64,000 nucleotides of DNA from NCBI GenBank assembly GCA_035308765.1, contig DATGGA010000029.1, positions 30,437 to 94,436 on the forward strand, written 5' to 3'. Within the stretch, counting starts at the first letter, position 1, and the number at the start of each line of letters is the position of its first letter. The notes beneath the pieces are model-generated. The model saw only the letters and a list, made by a program, of their open reading frames with translations, made no database searches and had not been told where the DNA came from. Shown here in pieces: positions 45,213 through 56,748 of this stretch. The position numbers and the translations under genes are program-made. This DNA comes from Burkholderiales bacterium. GTDB taxonomy: Bacteria > Pseudomonadota > Gammaproteobacteria > Burkholderiales > SG8-39.

Positions 45213-46011
45213 GGGCGATCCTGATCCTGACGTAGATGGGCGCGAAGCCTTCCGACTGCGTGACGTCGATCAGCAGTTCGCGCGCGAGCTCCAACAGCGC
45301 GAGGAAGGTAACCACCAGCACCGCGACGCCGCGCGCCGGGTCGAACAACTCGGTGAATTCCAGCACGCGGCTCTCCTTCAGCAGGCGCAGGATCTGGCTC
45401 ATGTGCTCGCGCACCGAGAGTTCCTCGCGCGAAACACGATGATGCTCGGTCATGCGGGCACGGAACAGCAGCATGCGCCAGGCTTCCGCGAGGTCGCGCG
45501 GGTGCACCTCGGGCAGGCGTTCGATTGCGGTCCGTTCGACCAGCACCGAAATCGCAAGCACGTCGCGGCCGACCTGCGGCAGCGCGTCCAGCTGCAGGGC
45601 CGCTTTCTTCATCTGCTCGTACTCGAGCAGCCGGCGCACCAGCTCGGCCCGCGGGTCCTCCTCCTCGTTCACCGCAGCCGGGCGCGGCAGCAGCATGCGC
45701 GACTTGATCTCGATCAGCATCGCCGCCATCACCAGGTATTCGGCCGCGAGCTCGAGATTCTTGGAGCGCATCAGCTCGACGTACTCCAGGTATTGGCGCG
45801 TGAGCGGCGCCATCGGAATGTCGAGCACGTCGAGGTTCTGCTTGCGGATCAGGTACAGCAGCAGGTCGAGCGGCCCCTGAAAGGCATCCAGCAGGATCTC
45901 GAGCGCGTCGGGCGGGATGTAGAGGTCAAGCGGGATTTCGGTCAGCGGCTCGCCGTAAATCGTGGCGAACGGCGTCGCGGCCCGAACTATGGGCGTAGCG
46001 GTTTCGGTCAC
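45196..46011 (-). CDS. scpA: Segregation and condensation protein ScpA (kleisin)
   Basis: [42 protein letters not shown]; GTG start overlapping the trpS stop. Confidence 0.94.
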
Positions 46012-47210
46012 GTGTAGGACAGCCCCATGGCCTCGCGCACGTCGCGCATCGTTTCGCCGGCGAGCGAGCGCGCCTTGTCGCAGCCGTCGGCGAGAATGTT
46101 TTTCACCAGCGTCGGATCGTCCAGGTAGGCCTGCGCGCGCTCGCGCATCGGCGCCAATTCCGCAAGCACGCTCTCGATCACCGGTTGCTTGCATTCCAGG
46201 CAACCGATGCCAGCGGTGGTGCAGCCCTTGCGCGCCCAGGCCTTGGTTTCGTCGCTCGAATAGACGAGGTGCAGCGACCAGACCGGGCATTTTTCCGGCG
46301 TGCCCGGATCGTTGCGCTTCACGCGCGCGGGATCCGTCGGCATGGTCTTGATTTTCTTCGCCACGGACTCCGGGTCTTCGCGCAGCGCGATCGCGTTGCC
46401 GTAGGACTTGGACATTTTCTGCCCGTCCAGCCCGGTGAGCTTGGAGGCTTCCGTCAGCAGCGCCTCCGCTTCCACCAGTATTTTCTTGCCGCTGCCCTCG
46501 AGCCAGCCGAACAGCCGCTCCCGGTCGCCGCGCGGCATGTTCTGCTGTTCATCGAGCAGCGCCTGCGCGCGCTTGAGCGCCTCGGCGTCGCCGCTTTCCA
46601 GGAACTTTGTGCGCAGCTCGTTGAACACGCGCGCCTTCTTGCTGCCCATCTTCTTCACCGCGGCCTTCGCCTTGTCCTCGAACCCCGGCTCGCGGCCGTA
46701 CAGGTGGTTGAAACGGCGCGCGAGCTCCCGGGTGAATTCGATGTGCGGCACCTGGTCCTCGCCCACCGGCACGTATCGGGCGCGGTAGATCATGATGTCC
46801 GCGGCCTGCAGCAGCGGGTAGCCGAGGAAGCCGTAGGTGGTGAGATCCCTGTCGGCGAGTTTTTCCTGCTGGTCCTTGTAGGTCGGCACGCGTTCCAGCC
46901 AGCCGAGCGGCGTCATCATGGACAGCAGCAGGTGGAACTCGGCATGCTCGGGGACCTGCGACTGCACGAAGATCGTCGCCTGGTTCGGGTCCACCCCGGA
47001 AGCCAGCCAGTCGATCACCATGTCGATGCCGACATCCTGCAGCACGCCGGGTTTTTCATAGTCGGTCGTCAGTGCGTGCCAGTCGGCGACGAAAAACAGG
47101 CACGGATGCTCCGACTGGAGCTTTACCCAGTTCTTCAGCACGCCGTGGTAGTGGCCCAGGTGCAAGGCGCCGGTGGGGCGCATGCCGGAAAGGACGCGGG
47201 TTTCAAACAT
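46008..47210 (-). CDS. trpS: Tryptophan-tRNA ligase
   Basis: SGMRPTGALHLGH, GYPLLQAADI, VPVGEDQ, KMSKS. Confidence 0.96.
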   Translation of the reverse strand: MFETRVLSGMRPTGALHLGHYHGVLKNWVKLQSEHPCLFFVADWHALTTDYEKPGVLQDVGIDMVIDWLASGVDPNQATIFVQSQVPEHAEFHLLLSMMTPLGWLERVPTYKDQQEKLADRDLTTYGFLGYPLLQAADIMIYRARYVPVGEDQVPHIEFTRELARRFNHLYGREPGFEDKAKAAVKKMGSKKARVFNELRTKFLESGDAEALKRAQALLDEQQNMPRGDRERLFGWLEGSGKKILVEAEALLTEASKLTGLDGQKMSKSYGNAIALREDPESVAKKIKTMPTDPARVKRNDPGTPEKCPVWSLHLVYSSDETKAWARKGCTTAGIGCLECKQPVIESVLAELAPMRERAQAYLDDPTLVKNILADGCDKARSLAGETMRDVREAMGLSYT

Positions 47211-47911: not shown

Positions 47912-48778
47912 TCAGAGCAGGAACTTCTCGATCAGCCGCGCGACTTCCTCGGGCTGGTCGTGATGCAGCATGTGTCCCGCGTCCGCGACCGTGCGGTGCT
48001 CCAGGCTCCTGAATGCGCTGCGGCGCTCCGCCAGTTCGGTATCGGTGAGCCTCATCCGCGCCCTGGTTTCGGATTCGGCGGCATCGACCCACAGCACCGG
48101 CGCCGCGACGCGCTCCCAGCAGGCGCGGGCTTCGTCCAAGCGGTAAAGCGTGGCGTTGATGAGCTTGTGCGCGGGATCGCTGCGCAGCTGCACTTCGCCG
48201 CCCTCCACCTCCTTGCCCCAATGCCGCGCGAGGAATTCGGCACGCTCCCGTTTCAGACGGGGATTGTTCTTCTGCAGCCGGTCCGCGAGTTCGGCATAGC
48301 TCGCGTACGGGCGCAGGCGCGGCGTCTCACGCAGTTCGTCCATCCAGCGGGCGTAGCGCTTGGGCGCCTGGTCCGCCCTGGTCGTCGGCATGCCGAAGCC
48401 TTCAAGGTTGACGAATTTCTCGATTCGTTCCGGCCTGATCCCCGCGTACAGGCCGCCGACATTTCCGCCCAGGCTGTGGCCGACCAGCTTGACCGGCGCT
48501 TCGGGCTGGATGTGAGCGAGCAGCGCGTCCAGGTCGCCGATGTAGTCGGGAAACCAGTAATTGTCGGAACCCGACCAGGAGGTCAACCCGTACCCGCGCC
48601 AGTCCGGCGCATAAACGTCCCAATCCGGCGCCAGCGCATCCACCAGGAACTGGAACGACGCCGAGACGTCCATCCAGCCGTGCAGCAGGATGATCTTTTT
48701 CCCGGGTGTTCCGCGCCAATGGCGAACGTGATAGCGCAGGCCGCGGATGTCGAGGAAAAGCGATTCGCTGGGTTTCAT
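47912..48778 (-). CDS. Alpha/beta-fold hydrolase
   Basis: LLHGWMD, nucleophile elbow GHSLGG, C-terminal HMLHHDQP. Confidence 0.88.
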   Translation of the reverse strand: MKPSESLFLDIRGLRYHVRHWRGTPGKKIILLHGWMDVSASFQFLVDALAPDWDVYAPDWRGYGLTSWSGSDNYWFPDYIGDLDALLAHIQPEAPVKLVGHSLGGNVGGLYAGIRPERIEKFVNLEGFGMPTTRADQAPKRYARWMDELRETPRLRPYASYAELADRLQKNNPRLKRERAEFLARHWGKEVEGGEVQLRSDPAHKLINATLYRLDEARACWERVAAPVLWVDAAESETRARMRLTDTELAERRSAFRSLEHRTVADAGHMLHHDQPEEVARLIEKFLL

Positions 48779-48830
48779 GGCGGGTGGAACGTGATCGGTG
48801 GAACGACTGCGGCTATCATACCGGCCATCC

Positions 48831-49358
48831 ATGCCGGTCTTTTCCCTGAATGAGCGCCGGGTCGAACTCCGCGGCGCGCACCACTACATCGCCTGGGACG
48901 CCACGCTGGCGGGCTCGATCATCCTGGAGAACGCGGTGAACATCTGGTTCAACGTGGTGATCCGCGCCGACAACGACCAGGTGCACATCGGCGAGGAGAC
49001 CAACATCCAGGACGGCTCGGTCCTGCATTGCGACCCGGGATTTCCGCTGACCATAGGGAAGCGCGTCACCGTCGGGCACAAGGTGATGCTGCACGGCTGC
49101 ACGGTCGGCGACGGCGTGCTGGTCGGCATCAACAGCGTCGTGCTGAACGGCGCGAAGATCGGCGCCGGCTCTTTGGTCGGCGCCAATTCGCTGGTGCCGG
49201 AGGGCAAGGAAATCCCGCCCGGGGTGCTTGCCGTCGGATCGCCGGCGAAGGTCGTGCGCGAGCTCACGACCGAACAGATCGCCGGGATCCTGAAGATCTC
49301 GGAAGGTTACGTGGCCCGCGCCAGGCTATTCAAGGAACACCTGAGAGAGCAAACCTAG
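48831..49358 (+). CDS. Gamma carbonic anhydrase family (YrdA/PaaY-like) protein
   Basis: TNIQDGSVLH, VTVGHKVMLHGC (three His ligands), hexapeptide repeats. Confidence 0.9.
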   Translation: MPVFSLNERRVELRGAHHYIAWDATLAGSIILENAVNIWFNVVIRADNDQVHIGEETNIQDGSVLHCDPGFPLTIGKRVTVGHKVMLHGCTVGDGVLVGINSVVLNGAKIGAGSLVGANSLVPEGKEIPPGVLAVGSPAKVVRELTTEQIAGILKISEGYVARARLFKEHLREQT

Positions 49359-50120
49359 TTATTTCGGCGCCATCCGGATCGCGCCGTCGAGGCGGATGGT
49401 CTCGCCGTTCAGCATTTCGTTCTCGACGATGGACTTCGCCAGCTGCGCATATTCCTCCGGCTTGCCCAGGCGCGAGGGGAACGGCACCTGCTTGCCGAGC
49501 GAATCCTGCGCTTCCTTCGGCAGGCCGAGCAGCATCGGTGTCAGGAACAGGCCCGGCGCGATGGTGACCACGCGAATGCCGTTGCGCGACAGGTCGCGCG
49601 CGATCGGCAGCGTCATGCCGACCACCCCGCCCTTCGACGCGGAATAGGCGGCCTGCCCGATCTGGCCATCAAAAGCCGCGACCGACGCGGTGTTGATGAT
49701 CACGCCGCGCTCGCCGGCCGCGTTCGGACCTGCCTTGATCATCGCATCCGCCGCGAGGCGAATCATGTTGAAGGTGCCGATGAGATTGATGCTGATCACT
49801 TTCGTGAAGCGCGCGAGGTCGTGCGGCGCATCCTTGCCGACCGTGCGTTCGGCAACGCCGATCCCGGCGCAATTCACAAGCACGTGAATACCGCCGAAAC
49901 CCTTGACTGCAGCCTCGACCGCGGCCTTGCCGTCGGCTTCCGAGGTCACATCGCACTTGCAGTATCTCCCGCCGATTTCCTTCGCCAGCTTCTCGCCGGC
50001 TTCCGCCTGCAGGTCCGCGATCACGACCTTGGCACCGTTGGCCGCGGCCATTTGCGCCGTCGCCGCGCCCAGGCCCGATGCGCCGCCCGTGACGAGGAAT
50101 ATGCTATTTCTGATTTGCAT
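49359..50120 (-). CDS. SDR family, type II 3-hydroxyacyl-CoA dehydrogenase-like
   Basis: [32 protein letters not shown]. Confidence 0.9.
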
Positions 50121-50161: not shown

Positions 50162-53100
50162 ATGAAACTCTCATTCGGCCTTGGTTTCGGCGATCTCTAT
50201 CGGCGTGAGGGGCTGCTGCGCCTGGACGGCGCGTTTTTGTCGTTCCTCGATCCTGCTCTTCGGAAAAAACTTCTCGAGGCGAGAGACAATCCTCCTTCTT
50301 GGAAAGCGGAGTCCGAACTGCTCATCGAGCTCGCGCCGCATCTCGAGGATTTCCTCGCGCAACTGTTCGGCATCGAGACCGAAGCACAGGCGCTCGCGGC
50401 GCGTCACAACGAGCTCGCGCCGCTGTTTTCGGTGAAGCGTCTTTTCGTCCAGCGCCACGCCCTGCACAAAGTGAAGCCCGGGGATGCGACGTCCGGCGGT
50501 TATGCTTTTTCCACCGAACTGGAATTCGCGAAGCAGGTAACGGAATGGGGCAAGGACCAGGCTGCGAACGCGGGCAAGATCGAAGGCGCGGCGCGTTATG
50601 CCGCCTGGGCGGCCACGACTCCGGAAGGCAAGGCGAAGCATCGCGCGGGCATTCTGTTCAAGACCCCGCTCAAGCTCGATTTCATGCGCCTGGTGCCGGT
50701 CCACACCGATATGTCGCAGGGATTCGCGAAGCACAGCCTCGAGCACCTGCGCCAGCGCGACGGCTTCGCCCTGACCGATCACGGTACCGACCTCACAGGT
50801 GCGCTCGACCAGGCGAACTACTGCATCTGGTGCCACGAGCAGGGCAAGGATTCCTGCTCCAAGGGCCTGAAAGAGAAGGCCCCTGCCACCGGATTCAAGA
50901 AGACCCAGTTCGGCGTGCCGCTCGCCGGCTGCCCGCTCGAAGAAAAAATTTCCGAATTCCACCTCGTCAAGGCGCGCGGCGAACCGCTGGCAGCGCTGGC
51001 AGTGATCTGCATCGACAACCCGATGGCCGCGGCCACCGGGCACCGCATCTGCAACGACTGCATGAAATCCTGCATCTACCAGAAGCAGGCGCCGGTGGAC
51101 ATTCCCCAGGCGGAGACACGCACGCTCAAGGACGTGCTCGAACTCCCCTGGGGTTTCGAGATCTATTCTCTGCTGACGCGCTGGAACCCGCTTAACCTGC
51201 GCCGCCCTGTTCCGCTCCCGGAGAGCGGGCGCAAGGTGATGGTGGTCGGCCTGGGGCCTGCCGGGTTCACGCTCGCCCACCACCTCATGAACGACGGACA
51301 CGCGGTGGCCGGAATCGACGGCCTCAAGCTGGAGCCGCTGAGCGTGCCCTTCGAGCCGGTGAAGGACGTGCGCAGCCTGTACGAGGACCTCGGCGGGCGC
51401 GTGATGGCCGGCTTCGGCGGCGTCGCCGAGTACGGCATCACCGTGCGCTGGGACAAAAACTTCCTCAAGATCATCCGCCTGCTGCTGGAGCGGCGCAGCC
51501 AGTTCGCCATGTTCGGCGGCGTGCGCTTCGGCGGCACGGTGACGCTGGAAGACGCGATGGCGATGGGCTTCGACCACGTTGCGCTGTGCGTCGGCGCGGG
51601 CAAGCCGACGGTGCTCGACATCCCGAACGGACTTGCTCGCGGCGTGCGCGCCGCATCGGACTTCCTGATGGCGCTGCAGCTCACGGGCGCCGCCAAGGAA
51701 GACTCCATCGCCAACATGCAGCTGCGCCTGCCGGTGGTGGTGATCGGCGGCGGGCTGACGGCAATCGACACCGCCACCGAGTCCCTCGCCTACTACGTCG
51801 TGCAGGTGAACAAGTTCCTCGAGCGTTATGAAGCGCTTGCGGCGGAGATCGGCGAGGACGCGGTGCGGGCGAACTGGGACGACCAGGAGCGCGAGATCGC
51901 GGAGGAATTTCTCGCGCACGCGAGGACTTTGAGAAATACGGCGAAAGAAAAGCACATCGAGTTGTTGCGGCACTGGGGCGGGGTCACCATCGCCTACCGC
52001 CGGCGCCTCATCGATAGTCCCTCCTACACGCTGAACCACGAGGAAGTCGAAAAGGCCTTGGAAGAAGGCATCTGGTTCGCCGAAGGATTGACCCCTGCTG
52101 CAGTGGACGTAGACAACTTCGGCGCCGTCAAGGGTATCCGCCTCAAGGGCGCAGCGACCGAGCACTGGCTGCCGGCGCATACCGTGTTTGTCGCTGCGGG
52201 CACCCAACCCAACACCGTGCTCGCGAGGGAAGACGCCGCGCACTTCTCGCTCGACGGCAAATACTTCGCTGCCTGCGACACCGACGGCAAGCCGGTCAAA
52301 CCACAGTACTCCACTTCCAAACCGGCGACGCCGAATGTGTTGCTGTCGAAGCAGCTCGACGGCCGCTTCGTCAGCTACTTCGGCGACGTGCATCCGTCCT
52401 ATTTCGGCAACGTCGTGAAAGCGATGGGCAGCGCAAAGCAGGGCTATCCGATTGTCTCGAAGGTTTTGAACTCAAGACCTCCCGTTGCAAAGGAAAATTT
52501 CTTCGATCGACTTTCCGACCAGCTCAATGCAACCGTCCACAAGGTCGAACGGCTGACGCCCACCATCGTCGAGGTCATCGTCCGCGCGCCTCTGGCGGCA
52601 AAAAAATTCCAGCCTGGCCAGTTTTATCGGCTGCAGAACTTCGAAACTCTTGCTCCTGTCGCCGCGAAAACGCGCATGCAGATGGAAGGCCTCGCGATGA
52701 CCGGCGCCTGGGTGGATCGCAAGAAAGGACTAGTCTCCATCATCGCGCTGGAAATGGGCGGCTCGAGCGATTTGTGCGCCATGCTCAAGCCCGGCGAACC
52801 CGTGATCCTGATGGGACCAACCGGGACGCCGACCGAGATCGCGGGTGGCGAGACGGTAGTGCTATGCGGCGGCGGCCTGGGCAACGCGGTGCTGTTCTCC
52901 ATCGGCGCGGCATTCCGCGCCGCGGGCTCGAAAGTCCTCTACTTCGCCGGATACAAGAAGGTCGCCGATCGCTACAAGGTTTCCGACATCGAGAACGCCG
53001 CCGACGCGGTGATCTGGTGCTGCGACGAGGCGCCCGGCTTCAAGCCCGGGCGCCCGCAGGACCGCAGTTTCGTCGGCAACATCGTGCAGGCCATGGACGC

Positions 53101-53503
53101 CTACGCCGAAGGACGGCTGGGCGCGCTCTCGATCCGCCTCGACGATTGCGACCGGCTGATCGCCATCGGCTCCGACCGCATGATGGCCGGCGTCGCGAAA
53201 GCGCGCCACGACGTACTCAAACCGCACCTGAAACCCGCCCACTTCGCAATCGGCTCCATCAACTCGCCGATGCAATGCATGATGAAAGAGATCTGCGCGC
53301 AGTGTCTGCAGCCGCACCGCGATCCGGTCACCGGCGAAACCAGCTACGTGTTTTCCTGCTTCAATCAGGACCAGCCGCTCGACAGCGTGGATTTCAAGGG
53401 CCTTCACGAGCGCCTGAAGCAGAACTCGCTGGCGGAGAAGCTGAGCGCAGGCTGGCTGCGCCACTGTATGCCCGGGCTCAGGAAGCAGCGCAGCTTCGTC
53501 TAG
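50162..53503 (+). CDS. Large FAD/Fe-S oxidoreductase: GltD/NfnB-like module fused to a C-terminal PyrK/NfnA-like module
   Basis: CIWC..C, GCPL, HRICNDCMKSC, VGLGPAGF, IGGGLTAID; C-terminal PGQF, MGPTG, CGGGLG, MQCMMKEICAQC..FSC. Confidence 0.8.
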   Translation: MKLSFGLGFGDLYRREGLLRLDGAFLSFLDPALRKKLLEARDNPPSWKAESELLIELAPHLEDFLAQLFGIETEAQALAARHNELAPLFSVKRLFVQRHALHKVKPGDATSGGYAFSTELEFAKQVTEWGKDQAANAGKIEGAARYAAWAATTPEGKAKHRAGILFKTPLKLDFMRLVPVHTDMSQGFAKHSLEHLRQRDGFALTDHGTDLTGALDQANYCIWCHEQGKDSCSKGLKEKAPATGFKKTQFGVPLAGCPLEEKISEFHLVKARGEPLAALAVICIDNPMAAATGHRICNDCMKSCIYQKQAPVDIPQAETRTLKDVLELPWGFEIYSLLTRWNPLNLRRPVPLPESGRKVMVVGLGPAGFTLAHHLMNDGHAVAGIDGLKLEPLSVPFEPVKDVRSLYEDLGGRVMAGFGGVAEYGITVRWDKNFLKIIRLLLERRSQFAMFGGVRFGGTVTLEDAMAMGFDHVALCVGAGKPTVLDIPNGLARGVRAASDFLMALQLTGAAKEDSIANMQLRLPVVVIGGGLTAIDTATESLAYYVVQVNKFLERYEALAAEIGEDAVRANWDDQEREIAEEFLAHARTLRNTAKEKHIELLRHWGGVTIAYRRRLIDSPSYTLNHEEVEKALEEGIWFAEGLTPAAVDVDNFGAVKGIRLKGAATEHWLPAHTVFVAAGTQPNTVLAREDAAHFSLDGKYFAACDTDGKPVKPQYSTSKPATPNVLLSKQLDGRFVSYFGDVHPSYFGNVVKAMGSAKQGYPIVSKVLNSRPPVAKENFFDRLSDQLNATVHKVERLTPTIVEVIVRAPLAAKKFQPGQFYRLQNFETLAPVAAKTRMQMEGLAMTGAWVDRKKGLVSIIALEMGGSSDLCAMLKPGEPVILMGPTGTPTEIAGGETVVLCGGGLGNAVLFSIGAAFRAAGSKVLYFAGYKKVADRYKVSDIENAADAVIWCCDEAPGFKPGRPQDRSFVGNIVQAMDAYAEGRLGALSIRLDDCDRLIAIGSDRMMAGVAKARHDVLKPHLKPAHFAIGSINSPMQCMMKEICAQCLQPHRDPVTGETSYVFSCFNQDQPLDSVDFKGLHERLKQNSLAEKLSAGWLRHCMPGLRKQRSFV

Positions 53504-53510
53504 GCGCCAC

Positions 53511-53548
53511 TTGACGGGATATACAAGTCTTATATAAGATTTGTATAT
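53511..53548 (+). promoter_or_regulatory. sigma70 promoter (TTGACG-N16-TATAAG) overlapped by a 30-bp palindrome (putative operator)
   Basis: ATATACAA-G-TCTTATATAAGA-T-TTGTATAT at 53519-53548, covering the -10 element and the ATG. Confidence 0.75.
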
Positions 53549-53750
53549 GCCGAAGCTGAAATCGAAGATCAGTACCTTCTCCGCGGCGCCGCGGGACCTG
53601 GAGATGCTGGACGTCGTCGCGCGCTATCACGGCACCAACAAGAGCGCGACGATCGTCAGCCTCGTGCGCCGGGAATTCTGGCGTGCCTTTCCGGGTGGCA
53701 CGGACAAAATCCGGCCCGATCGTGGTGCCAAGGTGGAGGACGGAAAATGA
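53547..53750 (+). CDS. Small ribbon-helix-helix-like putative DNA-binding protein (67 aa)
   Basis: KISTFSA (beta strand), PRDLEMLDVVARYH (helix), GTNKSATIVSLVRREFW (G-x-x-x-S turn plus helix); ATGA overlap with the next gene. Confidence 0.65.
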   Translation: MPKLKSKISTFSAAPRDLEMLDVVARYHGTNKSATIVSLVRREFWRAFPGGTDKIRPDRGAKVEDGK

Positions 53751-54922
53751 GATTCCTGTTGCTGGCTGCCCTGCTCGTCTCGTCGAGCGCTTTCTCGCAG
53801 GACATCAAGCTCGGAGAGCTGAACAGCTACAAGGTCTTCCCTGCTTTCCTGGAGCCTTATAAGAAGGGCATGGAGCTCGCGATCGAGGAGATCAACGGCT
53901 CCGGCGGCGTGCTGGGAAGAAAGCTCGAACTGATAACGCGGGACGACGGCGGCAATCCGGGCGACGCGGTGCGGGTCGCCGAGGAGCTGATTTCGCGCGA
54001 CAAGGTAAACGTGCTCATGGGGACGTTCGCGTCCAACGTCGGCCTGGCCGTGTCGAATCTCGCCGCGCAGCGCAAGGTGCTGTTCATCGCCTCCGAGCCG
54101 CTCACGGACAAGATCGTGTGGGAGAACGGCAACCGCTACACGTTTCGGCTGCGGCCCTCTACCTACATGCAGACTGCCATGCTGATCCCCGAGGCGGTGA
54201 AGCTGAAGAAGAAGCGCTGGGCGATCGTCTACCCGAACTACGAGTACGGCCAGTCGGCGACGGCGTCGTTCAAGAAGCTGCTGAAGGCGGCGCAGCCGGA
54301 CGCGGAGTTCGTCGCCGAGCAGGCGCCGCCGCTGGGCAAGATCGACGGCGGCGCGGTGGTGCAGGCGCTGATCGACGCCAGGCCGGACGCGATTTTCTCG
54401 TCTCTGTTCGGCGCCGACCTGCAGAAGTTCGTGCGCGAGGGCAACACGCGCGGCCTGTTCAGGAACACGCCGGTGTTCAACCTGATCGCGGGCGAGCCGG
54501 AATATCTCGACACGCTCAAGGACGAAACTCCCGACGGCTGGTGGGTGACGGGCTATCCGTGGAGCGCGATCAGCACGCCAGAGCACCGCAAGTTCCGCGA
54601 TGCCTACCAGAAGCGCTGGAAGGACTATCCCCGCGAGGGCTCTGTCGTGGGCTACGTGTCGGTCTACACAGTGGCCAACGCGCTGCGCAAAGCTGGCTCG
54701 ACGGATACCGAGAAGCTGGTCGAGGCGATGAAGGGCCTGGAAATGGGAACGCCCTTCGGCCCGATCGTCTGGCGACCGCTCGACCACCAGTCGACCATGG
54801 GCGCCTATGTCGGGCAGTTGGCGCGAAAGGATGGCCAGGGCGTGATGGTGAACTGGCGCTTCGCCGATGGAGCCAATTTCCTGCCGTCGTTTGAAGAGGT
54901 AAAGGCGCTTAGAAAAGAATAA
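53747..54922 (+). CDS. ABC transporter substrate-binding protein (LivJ/LivK-like, type 1)
   Basis: Signal peptide, EEINGSGGVLGRKLELITRDD, YPNYEYGQS. Confidence 0.9.
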   Translation: MRFLLLAALLVSSSAFSQDIKLGELNSYKVFPAFLEPYKKGMELAIEEINGSGGVLGRKLELITRDDGGNPGDAVRVAEELISRDKVNVLMGTFASNVGLAVSNLAAQRKVLFIASEPLTDKIVWENGNRYTFRLRPSTYMQTAMLIPEAVKLKKKRWAIVYPNYEYGQSATASFKKLLKAAQPDAEFVAEQAPPLGKIDGGAVVQALIDARPDAIFSSLFGADLQKFVREGNTRGLFRNTPVFNLIAGEPEYLDTLKDETPDGWWVTGYPWSAISTPEHRKFRDAYQKRWKDYPREGSVVGYVSVYTVANALRKAGSTDTEKLVEAMKGLEMGTPFGPIVWRPLDHQSTMGAYVGQLARKDGQGVMVNWRFADGANFLPSFEEVKALRKE

Positions 54923-54930
54923 TATAATCA

Positions 54931-56748
54931 ATGTCTTTATCGTCAGTCCTCATCCAGTTTCTTAACGGGCTGGCGAGCACCTCGGCGCTATTCCTGGTCG
55001 CTGCGGGGCTGTCGCTGATCTTCGGCGTTACCCGCATCGTCAATTTCGCCCACGGCTCCCTCTACATGCTCGGCATGTACCTGGCGGTCTGGCTGGCCGA
55101 ACGGGTCGGGTTCTGGGCGGCGGTACCGCTGGCTGCGATCGTGGTCGCAGCCGTAGGATGCCTCGCAGAGATCGGCCTTCTGCGAAGAATCTACAAGGCG
55201 CCCGAGCTGCTGCAGCTGCTCGCCACCTTCGCGCTGATGCTGGTGATCAAGGACGCGGCGCTCTGGGCCTGGGGGCCGGAAGATCTGCTTGGACCGCGCG
55301 CTCCCGGTTTCGCCGGGGCGGTGAAAATCGCGGGCAGCGCATTCCCGCAGTACGACCTGCTGCTGATCCTGCTGGGCCCCCTGGTGTTCATTTTTCTCCA
55401 GTTCATTCTTTTCAGGACCCGCTGGGGCATCCTGGTCCGCGCCGCGAGCCAGGACCGCGAGATGGCCGGCGCGCTCGGCGTCAACCAGCGCTGGCTGTTC
55501 ACCGGGGTGTTCGCGCTGGGCGCCCTGCTCGCCGGGCTGAGCGGCGCGCTGCGGATCCCGCTGGAGCCCGCGACCCTTTCGATCGACCTGTCGGTGATAT
55601 CGGACGCCTTCGTCGTCGTCGTGGTCGGGGGCCTGGGCTCGATTCCGGGCGCGTTTCTCGCCGCGCTGCTGATCGCGGAGATCAAGTCGTTCTGCATCGG
55701 GCTCGGCTTCTCGCAGGCCACGCTCGTCGTGGAGTTCATCGTCATGGCCGCGGTGCTGGTGGTCCGGCCACGGGGCTTGCTGGGTCAAGCGCAGGCTTTG
55801 GCGAGAAATCCGGGGATCACGGAAGCATCCCTTGAACCGCCGGAAAGAAAATTCCTCGCCGCAGGCTCCGCGCTGCTCGTCGTCCTCGCGCTGGTTCCGA
55901 TCGCTTCCCCCGGTTACACGCTGGTATTGCTCGAAGACATCCTGGTCTTCGCCCTGTTCGCTGTCAGCCTGCACTTCATCATGGGGCCTGGCGGCCTCTA
56001 TTCCTTCGGCCACGCGGCCTTCTTCGGACTCGGCGCCTATGCGGCCGGCATTCTCCTTCTGCGGGCAAAGCTGCCGATGGAACTCGCGCTGGCGCTGGCG
56101 CCTCTCGCCGCCTGCCTGGGCGCGATCGTCTTCGGCTGGTTCGTGGTGCGGCTCTCCGGCGTGTATTCCGCGATGCTGACGCTCGCCTTCGCGCAGATCG
56201 CCTGGTCTGCGGCTTTCGAGTGGGATGCGCTCACCGGCGGATCCAACGGCCTCGTCGGAACGTGGCCGGCGGCCTGGCTGTCGTCGGAGCCGGCGTATTA
56301 CTTCCTGACGCTGCTGCTGTGCGCGTCCGGAATTCTCTTCCTGTGGCGGGCAATGTATTCCCCGTTCGGCTACGCCCTGCGCGCCTGCCGGGATTCGCCG
56401 CTGCGCGCCGAGTCGATCGGCATCGACGTGCGCGCGACGCAATGGGCCGCATTTGCCTGCGCGGGACTGGCGGCGGGCGTCGCCGGCGCGCTGTACGCCT
56501 TCTCCAAGGGCTCGATCTCGCCCGACGTGCTGGGAATACAGCGCTCGGTCGACGGCCTGGTGATGGTGATGCTGGGCGGCATCCAGACGCTCAGCGGGCC
56601 GGCCTGGGGCGCGGCGCTGCTTACCTGGCTGCAGGACGCCGCCGCACGCAACATCGACTACTGGCGTGCGGTGGTCGGCATTGCGATCCTCGCGCTGGTT
56701 CTGATCCTGCCGAACGGAATCGGTTCTCTCTTTCAATCGAGAAAATGA
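54931..56748 (+). CDS. Fused LivH-LivM-like ABC permease
   Basis: GLSLIFGVTRIVNFAHG (LivH-like), then SFGHAAFFGLGAY and MVMLGGI (LivM-like) in one ORF. Confidence 0.9.
   Translation: MSLSSVLIQFLNGLASTSALFLVAAGLSLIFGVTRIVNFAHGSLYMLGMYLAVWLAERVGFWAAVPLAAIVVAAVGCLAEIGLLRRIYKAPELLQLLATFALMLVIKDAALWAWGPEDLLGPRAPGFAGAVKIAGSAFPQYDLLLILLGPLVFIFLQFILFRTRWGILVRAASQDREMAGALGVNQRWLFTGVFALGALLAGLSGALRIPLEPATLSIDLSVISDAFVVVVVGGLGSIPGAFLAALLIAEIKSFCIGLGFSQATLVVEFIVMAAVLVVRPRGLLGQAQALARNPGITEASLEPPERKFLAAGSALLVVLALVPIASPGYTLVLLEDILVFALFAVSLHFIMGPGGLYSFGHAAFFGLGAYAAGILLLRAKLPMELALALAPLAACLGAIVFGWFVVRLSGVYSAMLTLAFAQIAWSAAFEWDALTGGSNGLVGTWPAAWLSSEPAYYFLTLLLCASGILFLWRAMYSPFGYALRACRDSPLRAESIGIDVRATQWAAFACAGLAAGVAGALYAFSKGSISPDVLGIQRSVDGLVMVMLGGIQTLSGPAWGAALLTWLQDAAARNIDYWRAVVGIAILALVLILPNGIGSLFQSRK

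Follow-up and report, generated by a model that had tools for sequence, protein, structure and literature searches.

What does a single polypeptide that resembles both subunits of the transhydrogenase NfnAB do in a Burkholderiales bacterium? We asked this of one gene in a stretch of 64,000 nucleotides (the window; contig DATGGA010000029.1 of assembly GCA_035308765.1, positions 30,437 to 94,436 of the forward strand). The open reading frame (ORF) at 50162..53503 (+) encodes 1113 amino acids followed by a stop codon, and the ORF list and the translation agree with the original prediction, which had described a fused NfnB-NfnA-like flavo-iron-sulfur protein at this position. We confirmed that it is a true enzyme gene, far beyond chance, because it has more than 8000 homologous clusters at 90% identity, 4254 representatives at 50% identity with E<=1e-3 (1189 of them with E<=1e-30), and a confident AlphaFold2 model of the whole chain (mean predicted local distance difference test (pLDDT) 93.9, predicted template modelling score 0.93). 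We take the product to be a soluble iron-sulfur flavoprotein, and estimate a probability of about 0.5 that it is an NAD(P)H-driven reductase of ferredoxin or of ferredoxin-dependent enzymes.

Sequence profiles and fold both upheld the expected order of an NfnB-like module followed by an NfnA-like one, with each half nearer in sequence to its Nfn counterpart than to GltD or PyrK. We queried PDB sequences with a profile built from 52 diverse members of the family (alignment A1). This profile's central module matched Xfn (E 1.6e-30), NfnI-L (2.7e-28) and T. maritima NfnB (5e-25) far better than GltD (6e-14), and its C-terminal module matched NfnI-S (5jca_S; 1.9e-22) and T. maritima NfnA (4ylf_A; 9e-21) far better than PyrK (4e-11). 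A search for the Pfam domains that had been anticipated returned Pyr_redox_2 at residues 358-697 (E 6.8e-12) and a weak Fer4_20 match at residues 255-318. With the structural model as query, Foldseek gave template modelling scores of 0.80-0.81 to NfnI-L, 0.88 to 5jca_S and 0.84 to 4ylf_A. VIA aligned model residues 169-771 with P. furiosus NfnI-L (5jfc_L; Z 28.6, root-mean-square deviation 2.1 A over 431 residues, 28% identity) and model residues 784-1102 with T. maritima NfnA (4yry_C; Z 15.5). Since GltD (Z 27.5), dihydropyrimidine dehydrogenase (DPD; Z 24) and PyrK (Z 15.3) scored close to these values, the fold defines only the GltD/NfnB plus PyrK/NfnA superfamily, and it is the sequence comparison alone that tips the assignment towards Nfn.

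All of the Cys, FAD and NAD(P) motifs named in the original prediction were located in the translation. In the central module the GxGxxG motif for FAD occupies residues 363-368 and GGG residues 529-531, and a helical insert that NfnB does not have spans approximately residues 532-604. The C-terminal module carries PGQF (818-821), MGPTG (884-888) and GGGLGNA (903-909); Foldseek, VIA and alignment bore out its NfnA-type FAD barrel fold and a complete [2Fe-2S] site. The 'ERIPLT' FAD motif of NfnA reads 'EGLAMT' in the window protein, with Gly in place of Arg. The AT-richer linker reported earlier was also borne out: the GC content falls to 0.56-0.58 at about 52350-52650, compared with ~0.65 on both flanks, and this dip coincides with the inter-module linker (residues 771-789).

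Conservation of the cofactor sites was assessed in the window protein and 100 orthologs taken from genomes (101 sequences). Ligands were mapped by hidden Markov model alignments to P. furiosus NfnI-L and T. maritima NfnB, read against the published ligands of T. maritima NfnB and its YRR motif (PMC7596348). The Cys motifs of the translation (C221-x2-C224-x7-C232, G-C257-P and C297-x2-C300-x3-C304) had been called divergent, but in the profile alignment they map one-to-one onto the NfnB ligands (PMC7596348). We propose C221, C224, C232 and C304 as ligands of the distal [4Fe-4S] cluster, corresponding to C39, C42, C47 and C100 of T. maritima NfnB, and C257, C297, C300 and E318 as ligands of the proximal one, corresponding to C51, C90, C96 and E117. 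E318 is the probable counterpart of the proximal-cluster Glu ligand because it aligns with a Glu in the P. furiosus sequence, together with the T. maritima ligand list. The Arg of GGVLxYGIPEFR (P. furiosus R201, T. maritima R187) has its aligned counterpart in R429, within GGVAEYGITVR, and Y612-R613-R614 aligns with the YRR motif of NfnB for the NADP 2'-phosphate. We take P. furiosus R201 and T. maritima R187 to be the Arg beside N5 of the bifurcating FAD in Nfn structures. DPD also carries the bifurcating-flavin Arg, which is thus necessary but not diagnostic.

Invariant in 101/101 sequences were the seven Cys of the [4Fe-4S] region, E318, K432, Y612, R613, the four C-terminal Cys and R429, so that the bifurcating-flavin Arg singled out for checking is present throughout; position 614 was Arg or Lys in 99. 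The C-terminal Cys motif is C1039-x5-C1045-x2-C1048-x17-C1066, and C1039 stands where NfnA and NfnI-S have an Asp ligand. As judged by alignment, the [2Fe-2S] site is of the four-Cys PyrK type, found in 101/101 sequences, and not of the Nfn type with Asp and three Cys. Taken together, the alignments show the full predicted ligand and motif set of an Nfn electron-transfer chain in one polypeptide, under strong purifying selection.

The NAD-binding motif of the C-terminal module was less uniform. GGGLGNA was kept in 96/101 sequences; a deep-branching clade of Gammaproteobacteria (L100, L101 and L104) has a degenerate form of it, and the ortholog at L102:7938-11027 (1029 aa, from a 1.1-Mb genome) is without most of the NAD subdomain. 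The Fe-S ligands and the central NADP site stayed invariant in these deep-branching members. This pattern suggests that the NAD(H) leg was lost in some lineages. Because the NAD-binding subdomain of the window protein has 114 aa, compared with ~52 positions in the NF005128 model discussed below, and GGGLGNA is kept, we regard the window protein as a 'long form' whose NAD(H) site appears to be intact.

The original prediction had left an N-terminal region of ~220 aa unassigned. The extra region is real, but residues 1-210 already belong to a Pfam family, PF27156 (PF27156.1) RP005_N, which is annotated on the window protein and its homologues (precomputed) and which also names the nearest Atlas clusters of this domain. 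Because the NfnB-like fold begins near residue 167 by VIA, the added part is a helical bundle of approximately residues 1-165, and in the model a beta-hairpin (180-193) connects it to the Fe-S domain. Modelled alone, the domain reached pLDDT 88. Foldseek against the PDB gave no match at E<=1, and the best VIA-wide score (Z 5.0 over 56 residues, to three helices like sigma-factor region 4) is at noise level for helical models. Identity among members is lower here than anywhere else in the protein (26-71%). Most of the invariant positions in the domain are aromatic or structural (F25, F64, F69, F166, F202 and G156), a few are charged (D22, R41 and R199), and none is a Cys or a polar residue of catalytic appearance; no His cluster and no metal or nucleotide motif was seen among them. 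We infer a structural or docking role for RP005_N.

The family is already catalogued, as relatives of NCBIfam NF005128 (PRK06567) and as RP005_N-containing proteins in Pfam. The window protein scored 759.4 bits against NF005128 (model positions 1-913 and 966-1028), where the equivalog cut-off is 1072, and by this comparison it is a long-form relative and not the equivalog; 0 of the 34 matches in 401 Pseudomonadota genomes reached the cut-off. PRK12778 (fused PyrK-GltA), PRK12779 and TIGR01316 (NfnB-like 'gltA') matched much more weakly than NF005128. A partial match to NF009415 scored 88.7 bits against a cut-off of 1519; we take NF009415/PRK12779 to correspond to the 'Pattern C' fusions. These NfnB-then-NfnA fusions, of the Mobiluncus curtisii type, are uncharacterised and only ~200 aa longer than the ~760-aa clostridial fusions (Liang et al. 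2019, PMC6405883). The same paper names Koribacter as the sole known aerobe with an Nfn homologue and makes no mention of Rickettsia, Nitrosomonas or the RP005_N-type N-domain (PMC6405883). PRK06567 proteins are reported from nearly every Rickettsiales genome (PMC3641634). PDB 9N5U proved to be an unrelated Bfu-type NfnABC.

Among 401 sampled Pseudomonadota genomes the family was present in 34 (~8%), in 19 of 212 genera and with a patchy distribution, and it was found in 0/14 control genomes; these tallies, like those below, rest on sampled genomes that are related to one another, not on independent ones. Named hosts include Nitrosomonas, Nitrosospira, Nitrosovibrio, Nitrotoga and Gallionella, alongside many Burkholderiales metagenome-assembled genomes (MAGs). 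The hosts thus include nitrifiers and iron oxidisers, as well as a 1.1-Mb genome, and the named ones are aerobes or microaerophiles. Five contigs (L006, L022, L026, L059 and L071) were labelled Planctomycetota, Bordetella parapertussis, Streptomyces, Lysobacter and Rhizobium, respectively. Their taxonomic labels or binning look unreliable, because in the protein tree these MAG contigs sit within clades that are betaproteobacterial or otherwise unrelated.

Next to which genes does the family lie? Neighbour sharing was counted across 81 loci, and clades were placed on a tree of the 101 proteins. No operon partner was conserved across the whole family (81 loci), and contexts were clade-specific on the tree, but three of them recurred in unrelated clades: sulfate assimilation, fdxA and pntAB. 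In Nitrosomonadaceae, a cysB-like gene stands beside the series sulfite reductase-cysH-cysD-cysN-Nfn-like gene-pntAA-pntAB-pntB, and an unrelated low-GC family has the series sulfite reductase-sirohaem synthase-cysH-cysD-cysNC-Nfn-like gene. A sulfite reductase gene lies directly upstream of the Nfn-like gene in L071 and L081, so that the linkage to sulfate assimilation is found in at least three separate clades (Nitrosomonadaceae, the low-GC family and L071/L081). In L092 only 2 nt separate the cysN stop from the start of the Nfn-like gene. Where tested (Nitrosomonas, L075, L081 and the genome of the window), the sulfite reductases were NirA-like, meaning that they scored best on ferredoxin-nitrite reductase/NirA models and fell below the CysI cut-offs. 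NirA-type enzymes use ferredoxin.

In 8 of the 13 rows of the clade holding the window protein, fdxA precedes the gene on the same strand at a distance of 7-68 nt, and this ferredoxin is the FdxA equivalog (167 bits against a cut-off of 135). The pntAB genes follow the Nfn-like gene immediately in Nitrosomonadaceae and in Nitrotoga (L068); L017 has pntAA immediately upstream instead. Three further neighbours are each seen in one clade: FolD, a class-III aminotransferase and a class-2 PyrD. The last of these, a DHO_dh gene directly upstream in 9 loci, encodes the quinone-dependent class-2 enzyme (536 bits, above the cut-off), and no gltB or class-1B pyrD neighbour was seen in the 101 loci. Nor did nicotinate genes recur across these loci, so that any link of the gene to nicotinate is taken as a local one. 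In L106, from the small-genome proteobacterial family f41, a 1160-aa ORF without a Pfam match (L106:11822-15304, +) is divergent from the family gene.

For an NAD(P)H-driven reductase we infer the following route, including its ferredoxin partner, its direction and its physiological sinks. NADPH would bind the central module at the YRR motif and pass a hydride to the central FAD beside Arg429. From this flavin, electrons could move to the proximal [4Fe-4S] cluster (three Cys and Glu318), then to the distal one (four Cys), and from there to a small low-potential ferredoxin. This would most likely be the 7Fe FdxA, which is the best candidate because fdxA adjoins the gene in part of its clade; the genome of the window (3.26 Mb, 95% complete) has two fdxA genes, and also pntB. 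The reduced ferredoxin would in turn serve ferredoxin-dependent enzymes such as NirA-type assimilatory sulfite reductase. From the same flavin a second path might run through the four-Cys [2Fe-2S] cluster to the FAD of the C-terminal module and its NAD(H) site. By this path NAD+ could receive the second electron in the window protein, so that NADPH oxidation would be split in the style of Nfn, in the ferredoxin-reducing direction.

We put forward flavin-based bifurcation with NAD+ in this style only tentatively. Aerobes have high NADPH/NADP and low NADH/NAD ratios, which favour the ferredoxin-reducing direction; since respiring cells keep NADPH reduced through PntAB and NADH oxidised, NADPH-driven ferredoxin reduction would be the favoured direction for this enzyme. 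With NAD+ as a 'downhill' acceptor, the enzyme could reach potentials beyond those of an ordinary Fpr, which would explain both its coexistence with Fpr and its siting beside ferredoxin-dependent sulfite reductases and pntAB. One possible form, doubtful as it stands, is an oxygen-compatible bifurcating Nfn run backwards (2 NADPH + NAD+ + 2 Fd(ox) -> 2 NADP+ + NADH + 2 Fd(red)), with PntAB turning the NADH back into NADPH at the expense of the proton-motive force. Together the two enzymes would amount to a ferredoxin reductase driven by that force, and where CysJ is lacking they might supply low-potential FdxA to NirA-type sulfite reductase and to further enzymes that use ferredoxin.

Several observations weigh against a ferredoxin-reducing or bifurcating enzyme. 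The fold cannot tell NfnB (Z 28.6) from non-bifurcating GltD (27.5) or DPD (24), and a Cys has taken the place of the Asp that ligates the [2Fe-2S] cluster in Nfn. Nor does the NAD leg extend to the whole family, because deep clades are without the NAD motif and the subdomain of L102 is shortened. P. furiosus Xfn, despite its NfnI fold, is listed apart from Nfn in a paper which cautions that sequence alone does not reveal what an Nfn homologue does (Liang et al. 2019, PMC6405883). In the genomic context no neighbour is common to more than 18 of the 81 loci, the top neighbour cluster is a generic ABC ATPase, and the window neighbours are unrelated (a divergent short-chain dehydrogenase/reductase (SDR), a gamma-carbonic-anhydrase-like gene and an ATP-binding cassette (ABC) importer). 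PntB is not enriched by co-occurrence (30 of 34 family-positive genomes compared with 354 of all 401, a tally that includes the unpublished genome G383, on which no other claim rests), and CysJ is weakly depleted (2/34 family-positive compared with 62/367 other genomes, which are not independent). The genome of the window encodes a full-length Fpr-type ferredoxin-NADP reductase (contig C79, 277 bits), and because of this Fpr the Nfn-like enzyme is not needed merely to reduce ferredoxin. Finally, literature searches found no paper characterising any family member and no biochemical or genetic datum on one; this agrees with the original prediction, which knew of no characterised member, although the family itself was already in the catalogues.

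The linkage to sulfate assimilation could also be read more literally. The protein might be a dedicated, non-bifurcating partner of sulfite reductase, comparable to CysJ or DsrL, that docks directly on the hemoprotein and hands over NAD(P)H electrons, bypassing free ferredoxin, with RP005_N as a possible docking domain. That several clades have the gene in an operon with sulfite reductase, cysH and cysDN, with the 2-nt gap in L092, speaks for such a partner. So does the genome of the window, which has a NirA-like sulfite reductase on C42 (L083:1015-2823) and in which a CysJ-type FAD_binding_1 domain was not found; most sampled Pseudomonadota are without CysJ, however, whether the family is present or not. 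There is a precedent in DsrL, an NfnB-like NAD(P)H:acceptor oxidoreductase that partners DsrAB (PMC7596348). Against this, most loci, the window included, are without cys linkage, and FdxA is the immediate neighbour in the clade of the window protein. The family is also reported from nearly every Rickettsiales genome, and to our knowledge Rickettsiales lack sulfate assimilation, which counts against a dedicated sulfite reductase partner. We consider this explanation unlikely.

If the enzyme instead ran in the classical Nfn direction, reduced ferredoxin and NADH would yield NADPH, topping up the supply for biosynthesis beside PntAB. The cofactor set is the same as that of NfnAB, and the gene adjoins pntAB and NADPH-hungry sulfate assimilation. 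PntAB already supplies NADPH, though, and no large source of reduced ferredoxin was identified in the aerobic hosts (pyruvate:ferredoxin and 2-oxoglutarate:ferredoxin oxidoreductases, PFOR/OGOR, were not searched for). We disfavour the classical direction, and think it improbable, because the adjoining NirA-type sulfite reductases need a ferredoxin donor and not a sink.

It is more improbable still that RP005_N carries or recruits an unnamed substrate or partner, making the protein an NAD(P)H-dependent reductase of a non-ferredoxin acceptor. The domain is in every member, no fold relative was found for it, and genomic context is variable, all of which would suit such a role; the mostly aromatic or structural nature of its invariant residues, the lack among them of a Cys/His cluster or nucleotide motif, and its standing as the least conserved part of the protein (26-71% identity) would not. 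A role as a GltD or PyrK subunit, to which fold likeness (GltD Z 27.5, PyrK Z 15.3), legacy annotation names and the DHO_dh gene upstream in 9 loci might point, is highly improbable and was rejected: the scores lie far below cut-offs (51 bits against 447.7 for GltD, TIGR01317, and 17-34 bits against 224-314 for PyrK models), canonical gltB-gltD lie together on contig C34 (gltD 703 bits, above the TIGR01317 cut-off), and the neighbouring DHO_dh is a class-2 enzyme that needs no PyrK and is confined to one clade. As the original prediction had stated, the window holds no gltB or pyrD; both are elsewhere in the genome, on C34 and on C58, where its sole DHO_dh (pyrD) lies. Besides these, the genome carries a second GltD-like gene (C28:6061-7278, 176 bits) and, on its own, a gene with a Glu_synthase domain (C58:33546-34493); a NirB-like nitrite reductase is encoded on C34.

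How does the protein compare with known systems? It keeps both subunit folds of NfnAB, the eight putative [4Fe-4S] ligands including Glu, the flavin Arg and YRR, and its C-terminal module has a [2Fe-2S] site and a GGGxGxA NAD motif. It differs in being one chain in the order B then A, in its extra helical N-domain of ~165 aa and inserts of ~100 aa (e.g. 532-604), in its four-Cys [2Fe-2S] site in place of Asp and three Cys, in its Cys spacings (C-x2-C-x7-C...CP; C-x2-C-x3-C) and in having aerobes as hosts. Because it is without the Asp-ligated [2Fe-2S] site and the two-subunit format, and its activity is only predicted, we do not file it as Nfn. With NF005128 (PRK06567) it shares the three-part architecture, but it is a long form in the NAD-binding subdomain and scores below the cut-off. 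Pattern C proteins have the same NfnB-like then NfnA-like order and are uncharacterised as well, whereas the window protein matches NF009415 only weakly and partially.

DsrL has an NfnB-type 2x[4Fe-4S] domain, FAD, an NAD(P) site and, in NADP-using forms, YRR (PMC7596348), and it is tied to a sulfite reductase, genomically and functionally; in this family, too, some members lie beside sulfite reductase genes. It ends in a 2x[4Fe-4S] ferredoxin domain and has no RP005_N, whereas the window protein ends in a PyrK/NfnA-like module; DsrL serves dissimilatory DsrAB, while the reductases linked to the family are assimilatory and of the NirA/CysI type. CysJ, Fpr and PntAB resemble the enzyme in the job proposed for it, to bring NADPH electrons to sulfite reductase or ferredoxin, but their folds are unrelated to its central module. 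What is new here is the ligand invariance in 101/101 sequences, the PyrK-type [2Fe-2S] site, the loss of the NAD motif in deep clades and the presence of Fpr in the same genome.

The features of the gene and of its surroundings are collected in Table 1. The hexapeptide gene, the SDR gene and the Nfn-like gene are syntenic in roughly ten Burkholderiales MAG loci (e.g. L004, L007 and L008), and the ABC importer also follows the Nfn-like gene in this syntenic group. Just past the stop codon of the Nfn-like gene, a palindrome of 30 bp overlaps a promoter-like site (TTGACG, 18 nt, TAAGAT) that heads a small ORF (53511-53750 region), followed by the importer. No intrinsic terminator was found after the Nfn-like gene or before the importer unit, and the sole promoter-like site belongs to that next unit; the downstream importer unit is separate from the Nfn-like gene. 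A 740-codon antisense ORF (50171..52393, -) inside the 1113-aa gene is a shadow frame of the high GC content, and its apparent conservation in 76 loci reflects only that of the sense frame.

Table 1. Features of the Nfn-like gene and of its neighbourhood, in window positions.
Feature	Position	Strand	Evidence
Class-I W/Y aminoacyl-tRNA synthetase, further upstream	46008-47210	-	
Alpha/beta hydrolase, further upstream	47912-48832	-	
Gamma-carbonic-anhydrase-like hexapeptide protein, upstream	48798-49358	+	
SDR, directly upstream, divergent; start 41 nt from start of Nfn-like gene	49359-50120	-	
Whole gene: single-chain RP005_N + NfnB-like + NfnA-like Fe-S flavoprotein	50162..53503	+	ORF, homologues, AlphaFold2 model
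N-terminal domain PF27156 RP005_N, residues 1-210	50162..50791	+	Precomputed Pfam annotation
Predicted 2x[4Fe-4S] domain, residues 211-345	50792..51196	+	Weak Fer4_20, profile alignment, ligand invariance
FAD/NADP(H) module, residues 346-770	51197..52471	+	Pyr_redox_2, VIA to 5jfc_L, motifs
Inter-module linker, residues 771-789	52472..52528	+	Model secondary structure, GC dip
FAD barrel like ferredoxin-NADP reductase (FNR)/PyrK/NfnA + NAD-binding Rossmann subdomain, residues 790-1032	52529..53257	+	Profile, Foldseek, VIA
Predicted [2Fe-2S] loop (C1039, C1045, C1048, C1066) + C-terminal helices, residues 1033-1113	53258..53500	+	Alignment to NfnI-S/NfnA
Promoter-like site + palindrome, then small ORF, directly downstream	53511-53540 onwards		
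Peripla_BP_6 / BPD_transp_2 ABC importer, downstream	53747-56748	+	

These data describe a large, strongly conserved Nfn-like family in aerobes, tied to sulfate-assimilation, fdxA and pntAB loci. Should its members prove to be plain NAD(P)H:acceptor reductases, the result would be an ordinary annotation correction. If they reduce ferredoxin, they would help to explain how NirA-type sulfite reductase and further enzymes that depend on ferredoxin obtain electrons in aerobes without CysJ. Electron bifurcation of the Nfn type, which is flavin-based, is seen as characteristic of anaerobes, and a truly bifurcating member of this family would extend it to aerobic metabolism and offer a one-gene model enzyme.

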